From Escherichia phage YZ1, in the sequence record NC_047927.1: a stretch of 38,823 nt of DNA. One strand, given 5' to 3'. Numbering within the stretch: position 1 is the first letter of the stretch; the number at the start of each line of letters is the position of its first letter. The translations under genes were made by a program, and so were the position numbers. The notes below the pieces were generated by a model. The model was given only the letters and a program-made list of their open reading frames with translations. It was not told the origin of the DNA and did no database searches. This document shows, one piece after another, positions 1 through 38,823 of this stretch.

Positions 1-217
1 TCTCACAGTTCAAGAACCTCAAGTCTCCCCATAGGCCCTCTTTAAGTCCAGACCAAAGGCCCTACCCCAGTCTATCATAAGGCTGGACCGATGGTCAAGA
101 CGTTAGGTCAACGATAGGTCTAGGCTATGGCTGGAGGTCAGGACGATAGGTAGGGACTATGGGTCTGCCTCTGAGTCCCTATCTGTATAGTGATATAGTA
201 TAACCATAGGTCCTACA

Positions 218-302
218 ACCTACAGTCTAACTAACCTACAGTCTAACTAACCTACAGTATCAACCATAAGACACTCACACCCTACAGTCAAAGACCTACA
301 GT
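218..302. repeat. Left-end array of five CCTACAGT octamers (first two copies inside a tandem 16-bp unit ACCTACAGTCTAACTA)
   Basis: Direct reading: CCTACAGT at 219, 235, 251, 281 and 295. Analogous in position to the short repeat arrays next to the T7 terminal repeat. Confidence 0.8.
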
Positions 303-2177: not shown

Positions 2178-4859
2178 ATGAGCGTCATCTCTATTGACAA
2201 ACACGACTTCTCTGATGTGTCGAACGCCATTGAGCCGTTTAACCTGCTGGCTGACCACTACGGGCAAGACCTTGCAGTCAAACAGCTTCAGCTTGAGCAC
2301 GAGGCATACACTGAAGGCGAGCGACGTTTCATCAAGAACCTTGAGCGCCAGACTGAGCGCGGGGAACTGGCAGACAATCAGGTCGCCAAGCCTTTGATGC
2401 AGACTCTGGTGCCTAAGATTGCGCAAGCAGTCAAGGAGTGGCACGAAGGCCAAGACGGGAAGCTGTCAACCTCTCGTCCTAGCGTAGCGTTCATCATGTT
2501 GAGCACTGAAGAGAAGGCCGTCAAGGACCGCTCTATGCGCATCTCCTGTGAGTCCGCTGCGGTTATCATACTCAAGGTCATACTCTCCAAGCTGGTCAAG
2601 CCTGAAGGGATACCGATTACACCGATGGCCTCCGCGATAGGTCGCACACTTGAGGACGAAATCCGCTTCGGTCGCATCCGTGACAAAGAGAAGGAGCACT
2701 TCAAGAAGGCGATAGCTGAGAACCTGAACAAGCGAGCTGGGGCATCCTACAAGAAAGCCTACATGCAAGCGGTCGAGGCGTCCATGCTGGAGCAAGGCCA
2801 ACTGGAAGATGCATGGGGGACTTGGAGTCCTACAGAGGCTGTCCACGTTGGCATCAAGATGCTCGAGATTGTCATCCAGTCAACACAACTGGTCGAGCTT
2901 AAGCGGTACGGTGCTGGTAATGCAGCGGCTGACGTAGAGATGGTCCACCTGTCAGACTTCTGGGTCAAGAAGATGACACAACGAGGATTCAGCCTTGCGG
3001 GTATCGCTCCAGTCTACCAGCCTTGCGTCGTTCCACCTAAGCCGTGGACTGGTGTCGTAGGTGGTGGGTACTGGGCCAAAGGTCGCAGACCGTTACCAGT
3101 GATTCGCTTAGGGTCTAAGTCTGCGGTAGCACGTTATGAAGACGTATACATGCCTGAAGTCTATGACGCTGTGAATATCATCCAGAATACACCATGGAAA
3201 GTGAACAAGAAGGTATTGGACGTGGTGAACATGGTCGAGAAGCTGAACAACACGCCTATTGACGACATCCCTCAGATGGAACCGCTGAAGCCTGAGGACT
3301 ATGCTGGTGAGACCGAGGAGGAACTCAAGGCATGGAAGAAGACTGCTGCTGGTATCTATCGCCGCGAGAAGGCCAGACAGTCACGCAGATTATCACTGAG
3401 CTTTATCGTTAACCAAGCAAACAAGTTCTCTCAGTTCAAGGCCATCTGGTTCCCGTACAACATGGATTGGCGAGGTCGTGTCTACGCTGTCCCGATGTTC
3501 AACCCTCAGGGTAACGACATGCAGAAGGGTCTCCTGACTCTGGCAGTCGGCAAGCCTATTGGTGCTGACGGTTTCAAATGGCTGAAGGTCCACGGTGCAA
3601 ACTGTGCGGGTGTCGATAAAGTCACCTTCGAGGAGCGCATCAAGTGGGTGGAAGACAACCACGAAAACATCATGGCTGCTGCTAAGGCACCGATGGATAG
3701 TATTGAGTGGTGGGGCAAGTTAGACTCTCCGTTCTGTTTCCTCGCGTTCTGCTTCGAGTATGCTGGCGTAATGCACCACGGCCTGTCTTACTCCTGCTCG
3801 CTGCCGATAGCGTTCGATGGGTCCTGCTCTGGTATTCAGCACTTCAGTGCGATGCTTCGTGACCACATCGGTGGACATGCAGTAAACCTGACGCCATCCG
3901 GTAAGGTACAAGACATCTACCGCATTGTGTCTGACCGCATTGAGGAGGAGCTTAAAGTCCTGCTGATTAATGGTACTGACAACGAGATGGTCACTCACGA
4001 GGATAAGAAAACTGGTGAGATTACCGAACGTATCAAGCTGGGGACACGAGAGCTGGCCCGTCAGTGGCTGCAATTCGGTATGTCTCGCTCGGTCACTAAG
4101 CGCTCGGTCATGACTCTGGCCTACGGGTCGAAAGAGTATGGGTTCGCCGACCAAGTGTTCGAAGACACCGTGATGCCAGCGATTGACTCCGGTAAGGGAG
4201 CTATGTTCACTGAACCAAGCCAAGCGTCTCGCTTCATGGCTAAGATGATTTGGGAAGCTGTGAGTGTGACCGTAGTTGCTGCGGTTGACGCGATGAAGTG
4301 GCTTCAAGGTGCTGCCAAGCTGCTGGCTGCTGAAGTGAAGGACAAGAAGACTGGAGAAATCCTGAAGCCTTGCCTTCCGGTACACTGGGTCACACCTGAT
4401 GGTTTCCCGGTCTGGCAGGAATACCGCAAGAAGGATACCACTCGTCTGAACCTGATGTTCTTAGGGTCATTCAATCTTCAGCCTACCGTCAACAGAGGTA
4501 CGAAGAAAGAGCTGGACAAGCACAAGCAGGAGTCAGGCATTAGCCCGAACTTCGTCCACTCACAAGATGGTAGCCACCTCCGCAAGACTGTAGTCCACAC
4601 TCACCGCAAGTATGGCGTGATGTCGTTCGCAGTGATTCACGATAGCTTCGGGACCATCCCGGCTGACGCTGAGTATCTGTTCCGTGGCGTCCGTGAGACG
4701 ATGGTCGAGACCTACCGAGACAACGATGTGCTGCTTGACTTCTACGAGCAGTTTGAATACCAGCTTCACGAGAGCCAGCGCGATAAGTTGCCAGAGCTTC
4801 CGAAGAAAGGTAAACTGAATATCGAAGACATCTTGTCTTCAGATTTTGCATTCGCTTAA
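2178..4859 (+). CDS. Single-subunit DNA-directed RNA polymerase (T7 gene 1 homolog, 893 aa)
   Basis: Full-length colinear similarity to T7 RNAP: N-terminal DFSD...IEPFNLLADHYG, conserved blocks such as VHWVTPDGFPVWQEY and PNFVHSQDGSHLRKTVV, and the C-terminal FAFA. Confidence 0.97.
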   Translation: MSVISIDKHDFSDVSNAIEPFNLLADHYGQDLAVKQLQLEHEAYTEGERRFIKNLERQTERGELADNQVAKPLMQTLVPKIAQAVKEWHEGQDGKLSTSRPSVAFIMLSTEEKAVKDRSMRISCESAAVIILKVILSKLVKPEGIPITPMASAIGRTLEDEIRFGRIRDKEKEHFKKAIAENLNKRAGASYKKAYMQAVEASMLEQGQLEDAWGTWSPTEAVHVGIKMLEIVIQSTQLVELKRYGAGNAAADVEMVHLSDFWVKKMTQRGFSLAGIAPVYQPCVVPPKPWTGVVGGGYWAKGRRPLPVIRLGSKSAVARYEDVYMPEVYDAVNIIQNTPWKVNKKVLDVVNMVEKLNNTPIDDIPQMEPLKPEDYAGETEEELKAWKKTAAGIYRREKARQSRRLSLSFIVNQANKFSQFKAIWFPYNMDWRGRVYAVPMFNPQGNDMQKGLLTLAVGKPIGADGFKWLKVHGANCAGVDKVTFEERIKWVEDNHENIMAAAKAPMDSIEWWGKLDSPFCFLAFCFEYAGVMHHGLSYSCSLPIAFDGSCSGIQHFSAMLRDHIGGHAVNLTPSGKVQDIYRIVSDRIEEELKVLLINGTDNEMVTHEDKKTGEITERIKLGTRELARQWLQFGMSRSVTKRSVMTLAYGSKEYGFADQVFEDTVMPAIDSGKGAMFTEPSQASRFMAKMIWEAVSVTVVAAVDAMKWLQGAAKLLAAEVKDKKTGEILKPCLPVHWVTPDGFPVWQEYRKKDTTRLNLMFLGSFNLQPTVNRGTKKELDKHKQESGISPNFVHSQDGSHLRKTVVHTHRKYGVMSFAVIHDSFGTIPADAEYLFRGVRETMVETYRDNDVLLDFYEQFEYQLHESQRDKLPELPKKGKLNIEDILSSDFAFA

Positions 4860-35018: not shown

Positions 35019-35213
35019 ATGATTGAGTTAGACTTTAAGAACGAAGTCCTTAAGGCCTCCCCTATCGTTGGAACCGCTGCGGCTGATGGTGCCAGTCGGT
35101 TCTTCTTTGGACTCACACTGAACGAATGGTTCTACGTTGCAGCTATTGCGTACACCGTTGTCCAGATTGGTGTTCTGGTATACAAAACGATTAAAGGGGG
35201 AGGAAAGTCATGA
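35019..35213 (+). CDS. Class II holin (T7 gene 17.5 homolog, 64 aa)
   Basis: KASPIVGTAAADGASRFFFGLTLNEWFYVAAIAYTVVQIG is near-identical to T7 gp17.5. Confidence 0.9.
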   Translation: MIELDFKNEVLKASPIVGTAAADGASRFFFGLTLNEWFYVAAIAYTVVQIGVLVYKTIKGGGKS

Positions 35214-35473
35214 CACAAATGGACTTAGAGAAGTTCTTACTGATGCTGGATACGGAGCGTGCTCGCCTCATGTTGCAAGACTTGAGGGATGACACTAAGC
35301 GCTCGCCACAGCTCTACAACGCCATTGAGAAGCTACTTGCTCGTCACAACTTTGTGTTAAGCAAGGTGTCTGTGGACGAGAAGACACTGGCTGATATGGA
35401 GGCCCTGAACGCAGAGTACGATAAGGTGCTTTCAGCGACTGAGGATAATGACACCGGGTATGGTGTTCAATAA
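35210..35473 (+). CDS. Small terminase subunit / DNA maturase A (T7 gene 18 homolog, 87 aa)
   Basis: LLMLDT, RSPQLYNAIEKLLARH conserved with T7 gp18; lies before the large terminase as in T7. Confidence 0.85.
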   Translation: MTQMDLEKFLLMLDTERARLMLQDLRDDTKRSPQLYNAIEKLLARHNFVLSKVSVDEKTLADMEALNAEYDKVLSATEDNDTGYGVQ

Positions 35474-35535: not shown

Positions 35536-35937
35536 ATGGAAGGCGCATATATAAGTGGAGGATACTGGAAGGTTACTCGCAATGGTAAGGTGCATGGAGT
35601 TCACAGATTACTATGGGAGGAAGCCAACGGTCCTATCCCAGAGGGTTACGTCATAGACCACATTGACAGGAACCCTATGAATAACGAGCTGTCAAACCTT
35701 AGGTGTATACCCAAAGGAGCAAACAAGGCTAACACAGAATCATCTAGGGAACTACCTAAGGGTGTATACTCTAGGCTTGCTAAACGTCAAGGTGTGACTG
35801 TATATTATGGTGACATTAGGATTGGTGGTAAGAAAGAAACTCACGCTCCTACTAAGAATCTGATGGAAGTCGTGGAATGGGCTAAGTCAACTCACAGCAG
35901 AATGCTGAAGGAGACATATGGTATTTCAAATGTTTAA
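35536..35937 (+). CDS. HNH endonuclease (133 aa), likely a free-standing homing endonuclease
   Basis: HNH signature in HRLLWEEANGPIPEGYVIDHIDRNPMNNELSNLRCIP; codon usage rich in AGG/AGA and lower GC than the flanking core genes; no counterpart at this position in T7. Confidence 0.85.
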   Translation: MEGAYISGGYWKVTRNGKVHGVHRLLWEEANGPIPEGYVIDHIDRNPMNNELSNLRCIPKGANKANTESSRELPKGVYSRLAKRQGVTVYYGDIRIGGKKETHAPTKNLMEVVEWAKSTHSRMLKETYGISNV

Positions 35938-36370
35938 GAGAGCGGCTCCGTGGTTACTTGCAGCAGTGATGTTTGCTGGTGGCTACCACACCGCTAACAA
36001 TAAGTGGGAGGCTAAGGTAAATGCAGAATACACCTCGAATCTTAAGGCATCGGAGGATACAAGACTTGCTGTCCAAGCTGAAGTCAACAAAGTGTCCAAA
36101 CGGTTCCAGGACGAAATGTCCTCGTTGGAAGGCAGCACTGATAGGATTATTGCTGACCTTAAGTCTGACAATAAGCGGCTGCTCATCCGAGTCAAACCAA
36201 CGAGTGGAACCACGCAAAGTGACGGTCGATGCGTCATTGATGGTAGAGCCGAACTTGACGAACGAGATGCTAAACGTCTTATCGCCATCGGAGTGAAAGG
36301 AGACAAGTGGATTAAGGCCCTTCAAGACACTGTGAGAGCCTTACAGCAAGAGAAGGAGGTGAAACCTTGA
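35918..36370 (+). CDS. Rz-like i-spanin (T7 gene 18.5 homolog, 150 aa; start may be the second ATG at 35930)
   Basis: N-terminal TM segment, then [18 protein letters not shown] ... [16 protein letters not shown] ... [17 protein letters not shown], colinear with T7 gp18.5. Confidence 0.85.
36021..36296 (+). CDS. Rz1-like o-spanin lipoprotein embedded in the +1 frame of Rz (T7 gene 18.7 homolog, 91 aa)
   Basis: [21 protein letters not shown] with lipobox cysteine, then [18 protein letters not shown], matching T7 gp18.7 as remembered; wholly inside the Rz ORF. Confidence 0.7.
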   Translation: MQNTPRILRHRRIQDLLSKLKSTKCPNGSRTKCPRWKAALIGLLLTLSLTISGCSSESNQRVEPRKVTVDASLMVEPNLTNEMLNVLSPSE

Positions 36371-38130
36371 GTAAAGACTTAGTGGCGCGTCAGGCGCTAA
36401 TGACAGCACGTATGAAGGAAGACTTCGTGTTCTTCCTGTTCGTCCTGTGGAAAGCTCTGTCACTCCCGGTCCCGACTCGCTGTCAGATTGACATGGCGAA
36501 GAAACTATCGGCTGGTGACAACAGGCGTTTCATCCTACAGGCGTTCCGTGGTATCGGGAAGTCCTTCATTACGTGTGCATTCGTGGTCTGGAAACTATGG
36601 AACAACCCAGACCTGAAGTTCATGATTGTGTCGGCCTCAAAGGAACGAGCCGATGCGAACTCCATCTTCATCAAGCGAATCATCGACCTCATGCCTCAGC
36701 TTCAGGAACTCAAACCTAAGCAGGGACAGCGAGATGCGGTTATCAGCTTCGACGTTGGGCCAGCCAAACCAGACCACTCACCCTCGGTTAAGTCCGTTGG
36801 TATCACTGGTCAGTTGACTGGTAGTCGTGCTGACATCCTGATTGCCGATGACGTGGAGGTTCCGAACAACTCAGCGACTCAGTCTGCACGAGACCGTCTG
36901 TCAGAGCTTGTGAAAGAGTTCGACGCTATCCTGAAGCCGGGAGGTACAATCATCTATCTGGGTACTCCTCAGAACGAGATGACCTTGTATCGTGAGCTGG
37001 AAGGCCGTGGATACACCACTACCATCTGGCCTGCTCGTTATCCACGCGACAGGAAGGACTGGCAGTCTTACGGCGACCGTCTGGCACCGATGCTTCAGGC
37101 AGAGCTTGAAGATGACCCTGAGTCCTTCTACTGGCGTCCGACCGATGAAGTACGATTCGATGATACGGACCTGAAGGAACGTGAGCTGTCCTATGGTAAA
37201 GCTGGCTTCTCTCTACAGTTCATGCTTAACCCTAACCTGAGTGATGCTGAGAAGTACCCTCTGAAGCTCCGTGACCTTATCGTAGCCGACTTGGACCCAG
37301 CGTCTAGCCCAATGGTATACCAATGGCTTCCTAACCCTCAGAACAAGCGTGAGGACGTTCCTAACGTTGGACTCATGGGTGACTCATACCACACGTATCA
37401 GACTGTAGGTTCTGCCTTCAGTTCGTACACCCAGAAGATTCTAGTCATTGACCCTAGTGGTCGTGGTAAGGATGAAACTGGTTATGCGGTACTGTACCAG
37501 CTCAACGGCTACATCTTCGCTATGGAAGTTGGCGGTATGCGAGGTGGCTATGAAGACTCTACGCTGGAAGCCTTGGCTAAGATTGGTCGTAAGTGGAAGG
37601 TCAACGAATACGTCATTGAGGGTAACTTCGGTGATGGTATGTACCTTGAGCTATTCAAGCCTGTAGCTTCCCGTATTCATCCTGCTGCTGTAACTGAAGT
37701 GAAGAGTAAGGGTCAGAAGGAACTCCGCATCTGTGACGTTCTGGAGCCTATCATGGGGTCTCACCGACTTATCGTTAACGCTGCTGCTATCGTCCAAGAT
37801 TACCAGTCTGCCTCTGATAAGGATGGTGTTCGTAATCCTATCTACTCTCTCTTCTACCAGATGACACGCATCTCTCGTGAACGTGGAGCATTGGCACACG
37901 ATGACCGACTTGATGCGCTGGCTATCGGTGTACAGTTCTTCGTTGAGTCTATGGCGAAGGATGCCAACAAAGGCGAACGTGAAGTCACTGAGGAGTGGCT
38001 GGAGGAACAGATGGAGAACCCACGGAAAGGCTTCGAGTCCATCCGCACTGAGTTCTGGGACAATGGGGTCCGGGTAACTCACGATACGGACGACGAGCTG
38101 GGGCTAGGGTCCTACGTTACGTTCCACTAG
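36367..38130 (+). CDS. Large terminase subunit / DNA maturase B (T7 gene 19 homolog, 587 aa; apparent TTG start)
   Basis: Colinear near-identity with T7 gp19 ([41 protein letters not shown] Walker [76 protein letters not shown]). TTG at 36367 has AAGGAGG 7 nt upstream; the first ATG is 11 codons in. Confidence 0.95.
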
Positions 38131-38224
38131 CTGAATGAATAACTATAGGCGAAAACTGAATTAATACGCAGTTAGTAACCTATAGTTACTACCAGTCTAA
38201 CCTACTGTTTTATAAGGAGTTTGG

Positions 38225-38247
38225 ACTTAACTATCACTATAGGAAGA
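38225..38247 (+). promoter_or_regulatory. Phage RNAP promoter near the right end (T7 phiOR position)
   Basis: ACTTAACTATCACTATAGGAAGAC, predicted +1 G at 38242. Confidence 0.7.
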
Positions 38248-38426: not shown

Positions 38427-38585
38427 ATGGCAAAGACCAAAGCTGTACTTAAAGCTCTGGCGACCAATCGAGCTACATACAGGTTTCTTGCTGCTGTTCT
38501 ACTTGCTGCTGGCGTTACTGCTGGAAGTAAGTGGGTCGGGTGGGTCGAGACTCTCGTATGTTCTCTGGTGTCTCAGTGTAATTAA
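38427..38585 (+). CDS. Hypothetical small membrane protein (52 aa; T7 gene 19.5 position)
   Basis: Not in the ORF track. AGGAGG upstream of ATG 38427; hydrophobic stretch FLAAVLLAAGVTAG. Confidence 0.4.
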   Translation: MAKTKAVLKALATNRATYRFLAAVLLAAGVTAGSKWVGWVETLVCSLVSQCN

Positions 38586-38618
38586 CGCAATCATGGTAAC
38601 GATTCATGAGCGGAAGAC

Positions 38619-38661
38619 CTAAGGTCAGTACGTGGATAAAGACTCACTCTACTGACCTTAG
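38619..38661 (+). repeat. Perfect 12-bp inverted repeat (CTAAGGTCAGTA / TACTGACCTTAG) with a 19-nt loop near the right end
   Basis: Direct reading; the arms are exact reverse complements. Confidence 0.7.
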
Positions 38662-38748
38662 CTACTGTAGTCAAGGACTTTAGGTAACACCTTAATAGAA
38701 GCTCACTTAGGGTCATCCTACTTATTGGTCTATCCTAGTGTCGCCTGA

Positions 38749-38786
38749 CCTACGGTCCTTGACCTACAGTAGCTGCCACCTACGGT
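38749..38786. repeat. Right-end array of three CCTAC(A/G)GT octamers
   Basis: CCTACGGT at 38749, CCTACAGT at 38763, CCTACGGT at 38779; same octamer family as the left-end array at 218-302. Confidence 0.75.
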
Positions 38787-38823
38787 CACTCGATGAGTTT
38801 TGGACCAAAAGTTTGAGACCACA

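Follow-up and report, generated by a model that had tools for sequence, protein, structure and literature searches.

Just inside the left end of the phage genome studied here, one octamer, CCTACAGT, is repeated several times on the same strand, and the locus raises the question of what kind of element such an array is and which molecule, if any, reads it. The window, by which we mean the whole 38,823-bp stretch of DNA that was analysed, is a complete genome of a Kayfunavirus (K1F-like; Studiervirinae, Autographiviridae). A comparison of its first 1,200 bp gives matches in 418 phage records, headed by Escherichia phage ZG49 (93.7%) and then Penshu1, GA2A, SH4 and K1F; the closest records all belong to Kayfunavirus. 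The original prediction, made from the letters of the DNA, had placed the array next to a presumed terminal region, and that region is indeed a real terminus. The window and all five aligned relatives open with TCTCACAGTT, of which T7 has the first nine bases in common (terminal bases TCTCACAGT), and in the ZG49 record, which is circularly permuted, ...GAGACCACA is followed directly by TCTCACAGT..., that is, the end of the window and then its start. It follows that the window extends from the genuine left end of the genome to its final unique base, with the direct terminal repeat (TR) present once.

The boundary of the TR was set by homology to relatives with mapped ends, the second copy being absent from the record. 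Both the PhageTerm-predicted repeat of Penshu1 (1-179) and the annotated repeat of SH4 (1-191) end at the base that corresponds to window position 180, where the sequence reads ...GAGTCCCT on the TR side and ATCTGTATA... beyond it. By sequence, position 179 of K1F coincides with the same homologous boundary, and the 160-bp repeat of T7 has its homologous end at CCCT/ATCTGTT, the slash marking the boundary. The ends of SH4 and SH5 were located by run-off sequencing, and the K1F repeat is cited as 179 bp (PMC4925675). A boundary at window position 164, where the annotated GA2A repeat (1-165) would put it, was considered and taken as an annotation difference, because Penshu1, SH4, K1F and T7 concur on CCCT/ATCTGT. 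The array lies, as had been proposed, just inside the terminal region, in unique DNA that adjoins the TR and not within it; the first host-type promoter (557-586) and the first gene (from 778) come further in. The coordinates of the features discussed here are collected in Table 1.

Table 1. Features of the two genome ends and of the gene products considered as possible readers of the arrays (positions are those of the window).
Feature	Position	Strand	Remarks
Direct terminal repeat (TR)	1..180	+	Single copy in record, right-hand copy not duplicated; placed by homology to relatives' ends
ATCTGTA, counterpart of the T7 class II pause/termination signal ATCTGTT	181..187	+	Exactly at TR boundary
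Left array (SRL counterpart), 7 lattice sites	204..302	+	Starts 204, 219, 235, 251, 265, 281, 295
Octamer copy 1, exact	219..226	+	In 16-bp tandem unit
Octamer copy 2, exact	235..242	+	In 16-bp tandem unit
Octamer copy 3, exact	251..258	+	In partial third tandem unit
Octamer copy 4, exact	281..288	+	Position kept in nearly all relatives
Octamer copy 5, exact	295..302	+	Position kept in nearly all relatives
Single-subunit phage RNA polymerase	2178..4859	+	Pfam PF00940, E 6e-105; PF14700
gp18-type small terminase subunit	35210..35473	+	Pfam PF11123 DNA_Packaging_2, E 3e-12
gp19-type large terminase subunit	36367..38130	+	Pfam PF22530 Terminase-T7_RNaseH-like, E 5e-38; relatives' homologue annotated terminase large subunit
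Imperfect inverted repeat, 26-nt arms	38660..38774	.	Arms 38660-38685 and 38748-38774
Right array (SRR counterpart)	38749..38786	+	CCTACGGT 38749, exact CCTACAGT 38763, CCTACGGT 38779
Right-terminal unique segment (...CGATGAGTTTTGGACCAAAAGTTTGAGACCACA)	38787..38823	+	Abuts TR in concatemers; context of left-end cut site

The five exact copies of CCTACAGT that had been reported within 85 bp are all present and all on the plus strand (Table 1). The first two had been assigned to a tandem 16-bp unit; such a unit does exist, but it spans the first three octamers and not merely the first two, since Tandem Repeats Finder counts 2.6 perfect copies of the 16-bp unit AACCTACAGTCTAACT over 217-258. Genome-wide we count 13 copies of CCTACAGT. 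Shuffles that preserve dinucleotides give 1.62 +/- 1.19, and none of 100 had as many as 13. For five copies in 85 bp a rough Poisson estimate gives ~1e-16 per interval of that size, and when the tandem unit is taken as one event, so that three independent copies are counted, the estimate is ~1e-9, with ~900 such intervals in the genome. The clustering is far beyond chance even with the tandem unit as a single event. Allowing up to one mismatch on the plus strand, only the two genome ends hold at least three copies per 100 bp, and exact copies occur at 8.3 per kb at the ends and 0.08 per kb in the interior, a difference of ~100-fold. The seven interior copies of CCTACAGT compare with ~1.2 expected under an order-3 model and 5.1 under an order-6 model, and they are scattered in coding DNA on both strands; we considered them as functional sites and, given the order-6 expectation, the use of both strands and the scatter in coding DNA, treat them as compositional.

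The gaps between exact copies are filled by two degenerate sites, CCATAGGT at 204 and CCATAAGA at 265, and from start to start the seven sites of the left array are spaced 15, 16, 16, 14, 16 and 14 bp apart, a period of ~15 bp. Measured from the TR boundary, the array begins after 24 bp with the degenerate copy at 204, or after 39 bp with the first exact copy at 219. The conserved core extends one base beyond the octamer on each side, to A-CCTACAGT-C, the 10-mer ACCTACAGTC, which is about one turn of the helix in length. The region as a whole is strongly C/A-rich on the plus strand (GC skew -0.61). We rejected a coding or RNA function of the array on the ORF scan, in which a 21-aa minus-strand frame was the only ORF to overlap it and none was credible, and on an Rfam search of the region that gave no match at E <= 1. 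A hairpin role was rejected for the left array too, as inverted copies are absent: it has neither an inverted partner nor copies on the minus strand.

At the right end the octamer recurs, also as predicted, in the form of one exact CCTACAGT with a one-mismatch variant, CCTACGGT, on either side, at spacings of 14 and 16 bp and in the same orientation as the left array. In a concatemer this right array stops 37 bp short of the TR. Among relatives, every junction-spanning record has right-hand copies at about -75 and -61 relative to where the TR begins, and most have a third at about -45, all on the same strand and at a spacing of 12-16 bp; the third copy is absent in L011, ST64, ST56 and CHRF_30111. 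The last ~31 bases of the genome (GATGAGTTTTGGACCAAAAGTTTGAGACCACA) are nearly identical among all junction-spanning Kayfunavirus records, and a related ..AAAnnTCTGAnTG.. segment precedes the TR in T7, T3, K11 and gh-1.

How the left array behaves over evolutionary time can be read from 19 distinct Kayfunavirus left flanks, taken from GenBank records and IMG/VR contigs. The array comes directly after ATCTGTAT in all 19, and 18 of them have 3-7 exact copies of CCTACAGT; the other, L011, is truncated at the contig end and has three CCATAAGT variants only. Every examined Kayfunavirus record that covers a given end carries an array at that end. Thus, rather than lying elsewhere with the arrays internal and unconserved, the termini map beside the arrays, and arrays at both ends are kept in relatives. 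Across 57 distinct 20-nt contexts of the octamer, A stands at -1 in 53 and C at +8 in 49, and the positions outside the 10-mer ACCTACAGTC carry ~0.1-0.7 bit, mostly ~0.3. Start-to-start intervals fall at 13-17 bp in 79 of 97 cases and most of the others are about double that, which points to a ~15-bp lattice with occasional lost sites. SFP20 and KKP_3263 have spacers unrelated to those of the window and octamers that are intact. Tandem expansions are found in the window (spacer ctaactaa, x2.6), GA2A (ctaaccaa, x4), KE05 (ctcactaa, x5), ZG49 (a 15-bp unit, x5) and CHRF_30111 (caataga, x4), always with a period of 15-16 bp; they are built on different spacers and are independent between lineages. 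The number of exact left copies is loose (3-7) and the third right copy is missing from four relatives, so that no single copy is essential.

Turnover of this kind could mean that the arrays are simply neutral, slippage-prone repeats, regenerated and homogenised by slippage and unequal recombination at the junction and serving no function in cis. Close relatives do vary in copy number, tandem expansion has happened at least five times independently, single copies can disappear, as the third one at the right end has in L011, ST64 and ST56, and the two arrays lie ~250 bp apart in concatemers, where homogenisation is possible. Yet the 10-bp core stays the same over the 57 contexts even where the spacers have become unrelated, the non-tandem copies at 281 and 295 are conserved in position, and position, polarity and a period of ~13-16 bp are kept in five genera whose motifs have diverged, with minus-strand copies absent in seven genomes. 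We therefore think it unlikely that the arrays are neutral.

The comparison with other genera bears on both the identity of the array and its possible reader. T7 has, in order, the TR, ATCTGTT, left CCTAAAG repeats with a ~13-bp period and, before the right TR copy, CCTAAAG-type repeats; the left side holds 8 exact and 13 near copies and the right side 2 exact and 7 near, in agreement with the earlier statement that such arrays flank the terminal repeats in T7. An unbiased count of repeated 7-mers over 220 bp to either side of the TR put the same one at the top on both sides in T7 and T3 (CCTAAAG), K11 (CCTGAGG) and gh-1 (CCATAGG), and in Kayfunavirus the top 7-mers were close variants, CCTACAG right of the TR and CTAC[A/G/T]GT left of it. 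Kayfunavirus genomes have 6-7 exact plus-strand copies of CCTACAG; T7 has 10 and T3 has 6 of CCTAAAG, K11 has 4 of CCTGAGG, and gh-1 has 6 of CCATAGG. The resulting copy table is diagonal, its sole off-diagonal entry being a single CCATAGG in each Kayfunavirus genome, and no exact copy was found on the minus strand across the seven genomes compared. Interior 220-bp intervals of the present genome and of T3 hold 0.45 near-copies on average and never as many as five. CCTACAGT and CCTAAAGT differ by one base.

Arrays flanking the TR have been known for decades, since the T7 genome was sequenced; Dunn and Studier are said to have described the T7 arrays, SRL and SRR, on either side of the 160-bp terminal repeat in 1983. 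By its collinear landmarks, position, polarity, motif similarity and right-end partner, the array studied here is almost certainly the Kayfunavirus member of this class. The genome is linear and T7-like (Studiervirinae) with a short direct terminal repeat, the left array sits in unique non-coding DNA just inside the left TR (the boundary being placed by homology), a counterpart array with the same motif precedes the right TR, and the core is short, CCTAAAG-like and in one orientation, with a main spacing of 13-17 bp. The arrays also share common descent with those of T7 rather than having converged on them, because the terminal bases, the CCCT/ATCTGT boundary and the right-terminal segment come in the same order and can be aligned; the arrays proper change too quickly to be aligned with those of T7. 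Window and T7 agree in genome type, terminal bases TCTCACAGT and TR boundary, in an array that begins within tens of bp of the TR, in unique and non-coding sequence, and has a partner before the TR at the right end, and in a core of the form CCTAnAG found on the plus strand only. They differ in the core itself (CCTACAGT, or the 10-mer ACCTACAGTC, here; CCTAAAG in T7), in period (~15-16 bp here; ~13 bp in T7) and in copy number (5-7 left and 3 right here; about 12-13 left and about 7 right in T7), and, unlike in T7, no phiOL-type phage promoter follows the array here. We are thus dealing with a known class in a fresh variant, of different core and period, and not with a novel type of element.

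As T7 and the K1F group have the same host, E. coli, and different motifs, a host protein is an unlikely reader of the arrays and a phage-encoded one is favoured. A host-based explanation would be that the array binds an E. coli protein or serves as a leftward sigma-70 promoter of the A0 type. A leftward promoter A0 is annotated at 224 in T7, within SRL, and the window has a weak leftward sigma-70-like match within its array, with a -35 element TTGACT at 291-286 and a -10 element TATGGT at 268-263 (9/12 positions). However, the 900-bp region has 3 promoter-like matches where shuffles have 1.6 +/- 1.6, the -35 element is altered in most relatives (AGTCAT or AGTCAG for AGTCAA), A0 of T3 lies inside the TR and not in the array, and the motif differs between phages of this one host. 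We rejected the sigma-70 promoter as a weak match that is unconserved and not above shuffle expectation, and we consider a host-based explanation in general to be very improbable.

The nearest neighbour of the left array is the heptamer ATCTGTA, which stands 17-32 nt before it at the edge of the TR. In every Kayfunavirus junction examined this boundary is occupied by ATCTGTAT, and the equivalent boundary reads ATCTGTT in T7, T3 and K11 and ATCTGTA in gh-1, so that the order TR, ATCTGT, array is common to these four phages; in the K11 record, positions 180-188 bear the label 'concatemeric junction'. The class II signal ATCTGTT has been described at the concatemer junction (CJ) of T7 (bioRxiv 10.1101/2021.01.11.426313; 10.64898/2026.02.12.705533), where T7 RNA polymerase halts 6-8 nt past the signal and any base change in it is reported to abolish termination (bioRxiv 10.1101/2021.01.11.426313). 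The heptamer of the window is like the CJ signal of T7 in lying right next to the array, where the TR ends, a relation kept across the compared genera, and differs from it in the seventh base, A here and T in T7. The CJ signal is unlike the array in being single-copy, read by RNA polymerase and outside the repeat family.

This proximity suggests a different role for the left array, namely that together with ATCTGTA it prolongs or stabilises a pause or roadblock of the phage RNA polymerase, and that the terminase is then recruited by the paused polymerase and not by the array. The array does lie 17-32 nt downstream of the pause-type motif, near the place where T7 RNA polymerase stops, all of its copies face the direction of transcription, and the order of TR, ATCTGT and array recurs in T7, T3, K11 and gh-1. 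But the right array, with the same core, precedes the TR and is ~225 bp away from the pause-type motif on its upstream side; the octamer is unlike the phage promoter consensus CTAAACTATCACTATAGG derived from nine copies; and T7 and T3, whose RNA polymerases differ in promoter specificity, share CCTAAAG. A pause-related role of this kind is, in our judgement, rather unlikely. We also considered the array as a promoter fragment or decoy and discarded that idea for its lack of resemblance to the same consensus.

What position and conservation favour, by a little, is that the arrays are cis-acting sites for a phage-encoded junction-processing protein and mark the junction for cutting and packaging. 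A fixed 10-bp core with free spacers, a regular lattice and a single polarity point to such a reader, as do motifs that are matched between the ends, different between genera and kept through turnover. The sequences show the anatomy, the placement against mapped ends, the constant core, the single polarity and the genus-specific motifs matched at the two ends; binding by a protein, its identity and the two roles discussed below are inferred, and so is the link to concatemer processing and packaging made in the original prediction. In head-to-tail joined genomes the right array (3 sites) is followed by 37 bp, the TR (180 bp), ATCTGTA and the left array (7 sites), and the ACCTACAGTC cores, on one strand and on a ~15-bp lattice, would be protein-binding sites. 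We propose that the sites flag both sides of the junction, upon which the terminase would cut at the TR boundaries and package one genome length. The prime candidate for the reader is the small terminase gp18, alongside gp19 and the RNA polymerase paused at the junction motif. Of these, the gp19-type subunit is the predicted nuclease and motor, whose cuts would fall on the TR boundaries. An alternative candidate reader is the phage RNA polymerase, which is expected to pause at 181-187. Pausing of RNA polymerase at the junction signal is part of T7 processing, and T7 is packaged right end first. If the right end is packaged first here too, the right array might act at initiation, like lambda cosB, and the left array might be the last signal before the final cut, like lambda cosQ.

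Repeated sites beside a terminase cut have precedents. In lambda, the R1-R3 sites of cosB are bound by the small terminase gpNu1, and the arrays described here lie where cosB- or pacB-type sites would be expected, 37 bp and 24-39 bp outside the TR boundaries, at which the mature ends form. Lambda resembles the proposed model in having repeated short sites beside the terminase cut and separate elements for initiation and termination. It differs in that its cohesive ends arise at one nicking site, whereas T7-like phages make two cuts, 180 bp apart here, and duplicate the TR; in that its R sites are in mixed orientation, with an IHF site among them, and have no sequence similarity to the arrays; and in that binding has been demonstrated for lambda, whereas for the Kayfunavirus arrays it is proposed. 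In the pac site of P1, the cut region divides seven TGATCA/G hexamers into a group of four and a group of three, and the site is alike in placing clusters of a short motif on both sides of cleavage; unlike the present arrays, it works in headful packaging, through palindromic hexamers regulated by Dam methylation, and involves no terminal-repeat duplication.

Several points weigh on how far this can be taken. Deletion of the gene 19.5/'m' region, close to the right end, reportedly leaves T7 viable, which counts against a packaging role and would suggest that the right-hand array is at most stimulatory. The loose copy number, with no single copy essential, counts against it as well. T3 gp18 is reported to bind DNA without clear sequence specificity, which counts against gp18 as the reader. 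Since the arrays lie so close together in concatemers, left and right motifs might also come to match by gene conversion or slippage, without a shared reader. In the literature we retrieved, to which the primary T7 and T3 packaging papers did not belong, we found no experimental role for TR-flanking arrays of the T7 type; deletion analyses of T7 and T3 are said to have been published by Chung and Hinkle and by Hashimoto and Fujisawa, in 1990 and 1992 respectively. Weighing these points, we place a packaging or processing role of the arrays at just under an even chance on the present sequences, and recognition by gp18 in particular lower still. A published model for T7 has gp18 recognise pacB and gp19 cut pacC (PMC9860248).

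A more far-reaching but doubtful reading, to which we would give perhaps one chance among several, is that the arrays form a genus-specific 'packaging address', a phased lattice of 10-bp cores with a ~15-bp period and one polarity, placed to either side of the concatemer junction and read by the terminase complex of the phage itself. On this reading, the motif would co-evolve between the two ends and with its reader, the left array would signal on the termination side and the right array on the initiation side, and T7 (CCTAAAG) and the K1F group (CCTACAGT), when co-infecting a cell, might be spared from cutting and packaging each other's concatemers. If true, the address would supply a concrete and testable function for SRL and SRR, a puzzle of 40 years' standing.

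To a specialist the presence of the feature itself will not be surprising. What the comparison adds to the T7-like arrays is a clean variant, of the same architecture, and a sharper question: the motif is genus-specific, matched at the two ends, one-stranded and kept through turnover of spacers and copies, which is the pattern expected of sites read by a phage-encoded factor. The matching of left and right motifs across genera makes the old question of function testable by motif swaps. The arrays also locate the TR boundary and the true ends in the many Kayfunavirus records that have been deposited permuted or with spurious ORFs crossing the junction, and in transducing particles and synthetic genomes based on K1F or T7 they are probably best retained.

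The right end has one further property, in that the 3' arm of its 26-nt imperfect inverted repeat (Table 1) holds the first two right-end octamers. The repeats could accordingly be viewed as arms of a hairpin or cruciform serving duplication of the TR, along the lines of the hairpin-end intermediate that Chung, Nardone and Hinkle reportedly proposed in 1990 for the right end of T7. The segment 38610-38790, folded as single-stranded DNA, reaches -31.5 kcal/mol with a z of -4.4, and K11 has at the same place an inverted repeat of 23 nt and 87% complementarity, with its own motif inside it, where T3 and T7 have 12-nt ones. Against structure as the general explanation stand the left array, which as noted above has no inverted partner, gh-1, in which inspection found no such right-end repeat, and ST56 and CHRF_30111, in which the long inverted repeat is partly eroded; close relatives are too alike for compensatory changes to show. 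We regard DNA structure as an improbable account of the arrays as a whole, a structural role being possible at the right end only, and on slender evidence the inverted repeats there may relate to the T7 hairpin-end intermediate. The 26-nt imperfect repeat of the window comprises matches of 16 nt at 88% and 11 nt at 100%. It is the second of two adjacent inverted repeats in the stretch from the last small ORF (38427-38585) to the junction, and the first of the two has perfect 12-nt arms at 38619-38630 and 38650-38661.

The direct terminal repeat (TR, 1-180), beside which the left short-repeat array lies, is itself made up of degenerate motifs of the form nnTAnGGTC, related to the array core and spaced at a period of roughly 11-13 bp; Tandem Repeats Finder (TRF) detects an 11-bp period at 100-120. 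Since the TR of T7 likewise holds array-like units (CCTAAAG-like), the entire concatemer junction looks, from its sequence, like a single old and decayed repeat field. The array region (201-300) also has extreme strand asymmetry (GC skew -0.61, AT skew +0.32), with a plus strand almost devoid of G except in the cores. Copies of the octamer CCTACAGT away from the ends number seven, on both strands and all within coding DNA, where an order-3 model expects ~1.2 and an order-6 model 5.1, and this interior excess is probably compositional.

Features at the genome ends and related sites
Feature	Position	Strand	Details
TR motifs	within 1-180		CGATAGGTC, GCTATGGCT, ACTATGGGTC, CCATAGGCC
Sigma-70-like site in left array	263-291	-	TTGACT-17-TATGGT, 9/12; weak, leftward
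Interior CCTACAGT	5094, 7022, 22495		
Interior CCTACAGT	7942, 16932, 34833, 37402	-	
phiOR-like promoter	~38219-38243		
Inverted repeat 1	38619-38661		perfect 12-nt stem, 19-nt loop
Inverted repeat 2	38660-38774		imperfect, 26-nt arms, 62-nt spacer
CDSs over the ends in relatives' records	L001 336-551; junction regions of L025, L026, L028, L029, L031		hypothetical proteins

T7, T3 and K11 carry phiOL at ~370-500, whereas YZ1 has no counterpart there and lacks any phage-polymerase promoter from the TR up to the early genes (1-2095); the first of the nine CTAAACTATCACTATAGG phage promoters is at 2096 (CACTATAGG start). The leftward promoter A0 of T7 is annotated at 224, within T7's own array. 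The -35 hexamer of the leftward sigma-70-like site in YZ1 is not kept in most relatives. The junction pause-type motif, ATCTGTA (181-187), is common to all Kayfunavirus genomes examined and to gh-1, whereas T7, T3 and K11 have ATCTGTT. Any change to the heptamer reportedly abolishes termination by T7 RNA polymerase (bioRxiv 10.1101/2021.01.11.426313). Either the variant is tolerated by the K1F-type polymerase, or pausing is not conserved.

The stretch from the last small ORF to the junction holds two neighbouring inverted repeats. The 26-nt one includes the right-end octamers of 38749 and 38763 in its 3' arm, and 38610-38790 folded as single-stranded DNA gives z = -4.4. K11 carries a 23-nt inverted repeat resembling the 26-nt one, which is partly eroded in the relatives ST56 and CHRF_30111. 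A 'hairpin end' intermediate has been proposed for the right end of T7, and these inverted repeats may be linked to it.

Many GenBank Kayfunavirus records are circularly permuted as deposited, and the arrays together with ATCTGTAT could serve to re-orient them. Many also annotate short 'hypothetical protein' CDSs over the TR, arrays and junction, which are probably spurious. An HNH endonuclease ORF (35536-35937; PF13392, E 3e-18) sits between the small terminase gene and a gp18.5-like gene, and is probably a mobile, homing-type insertion.
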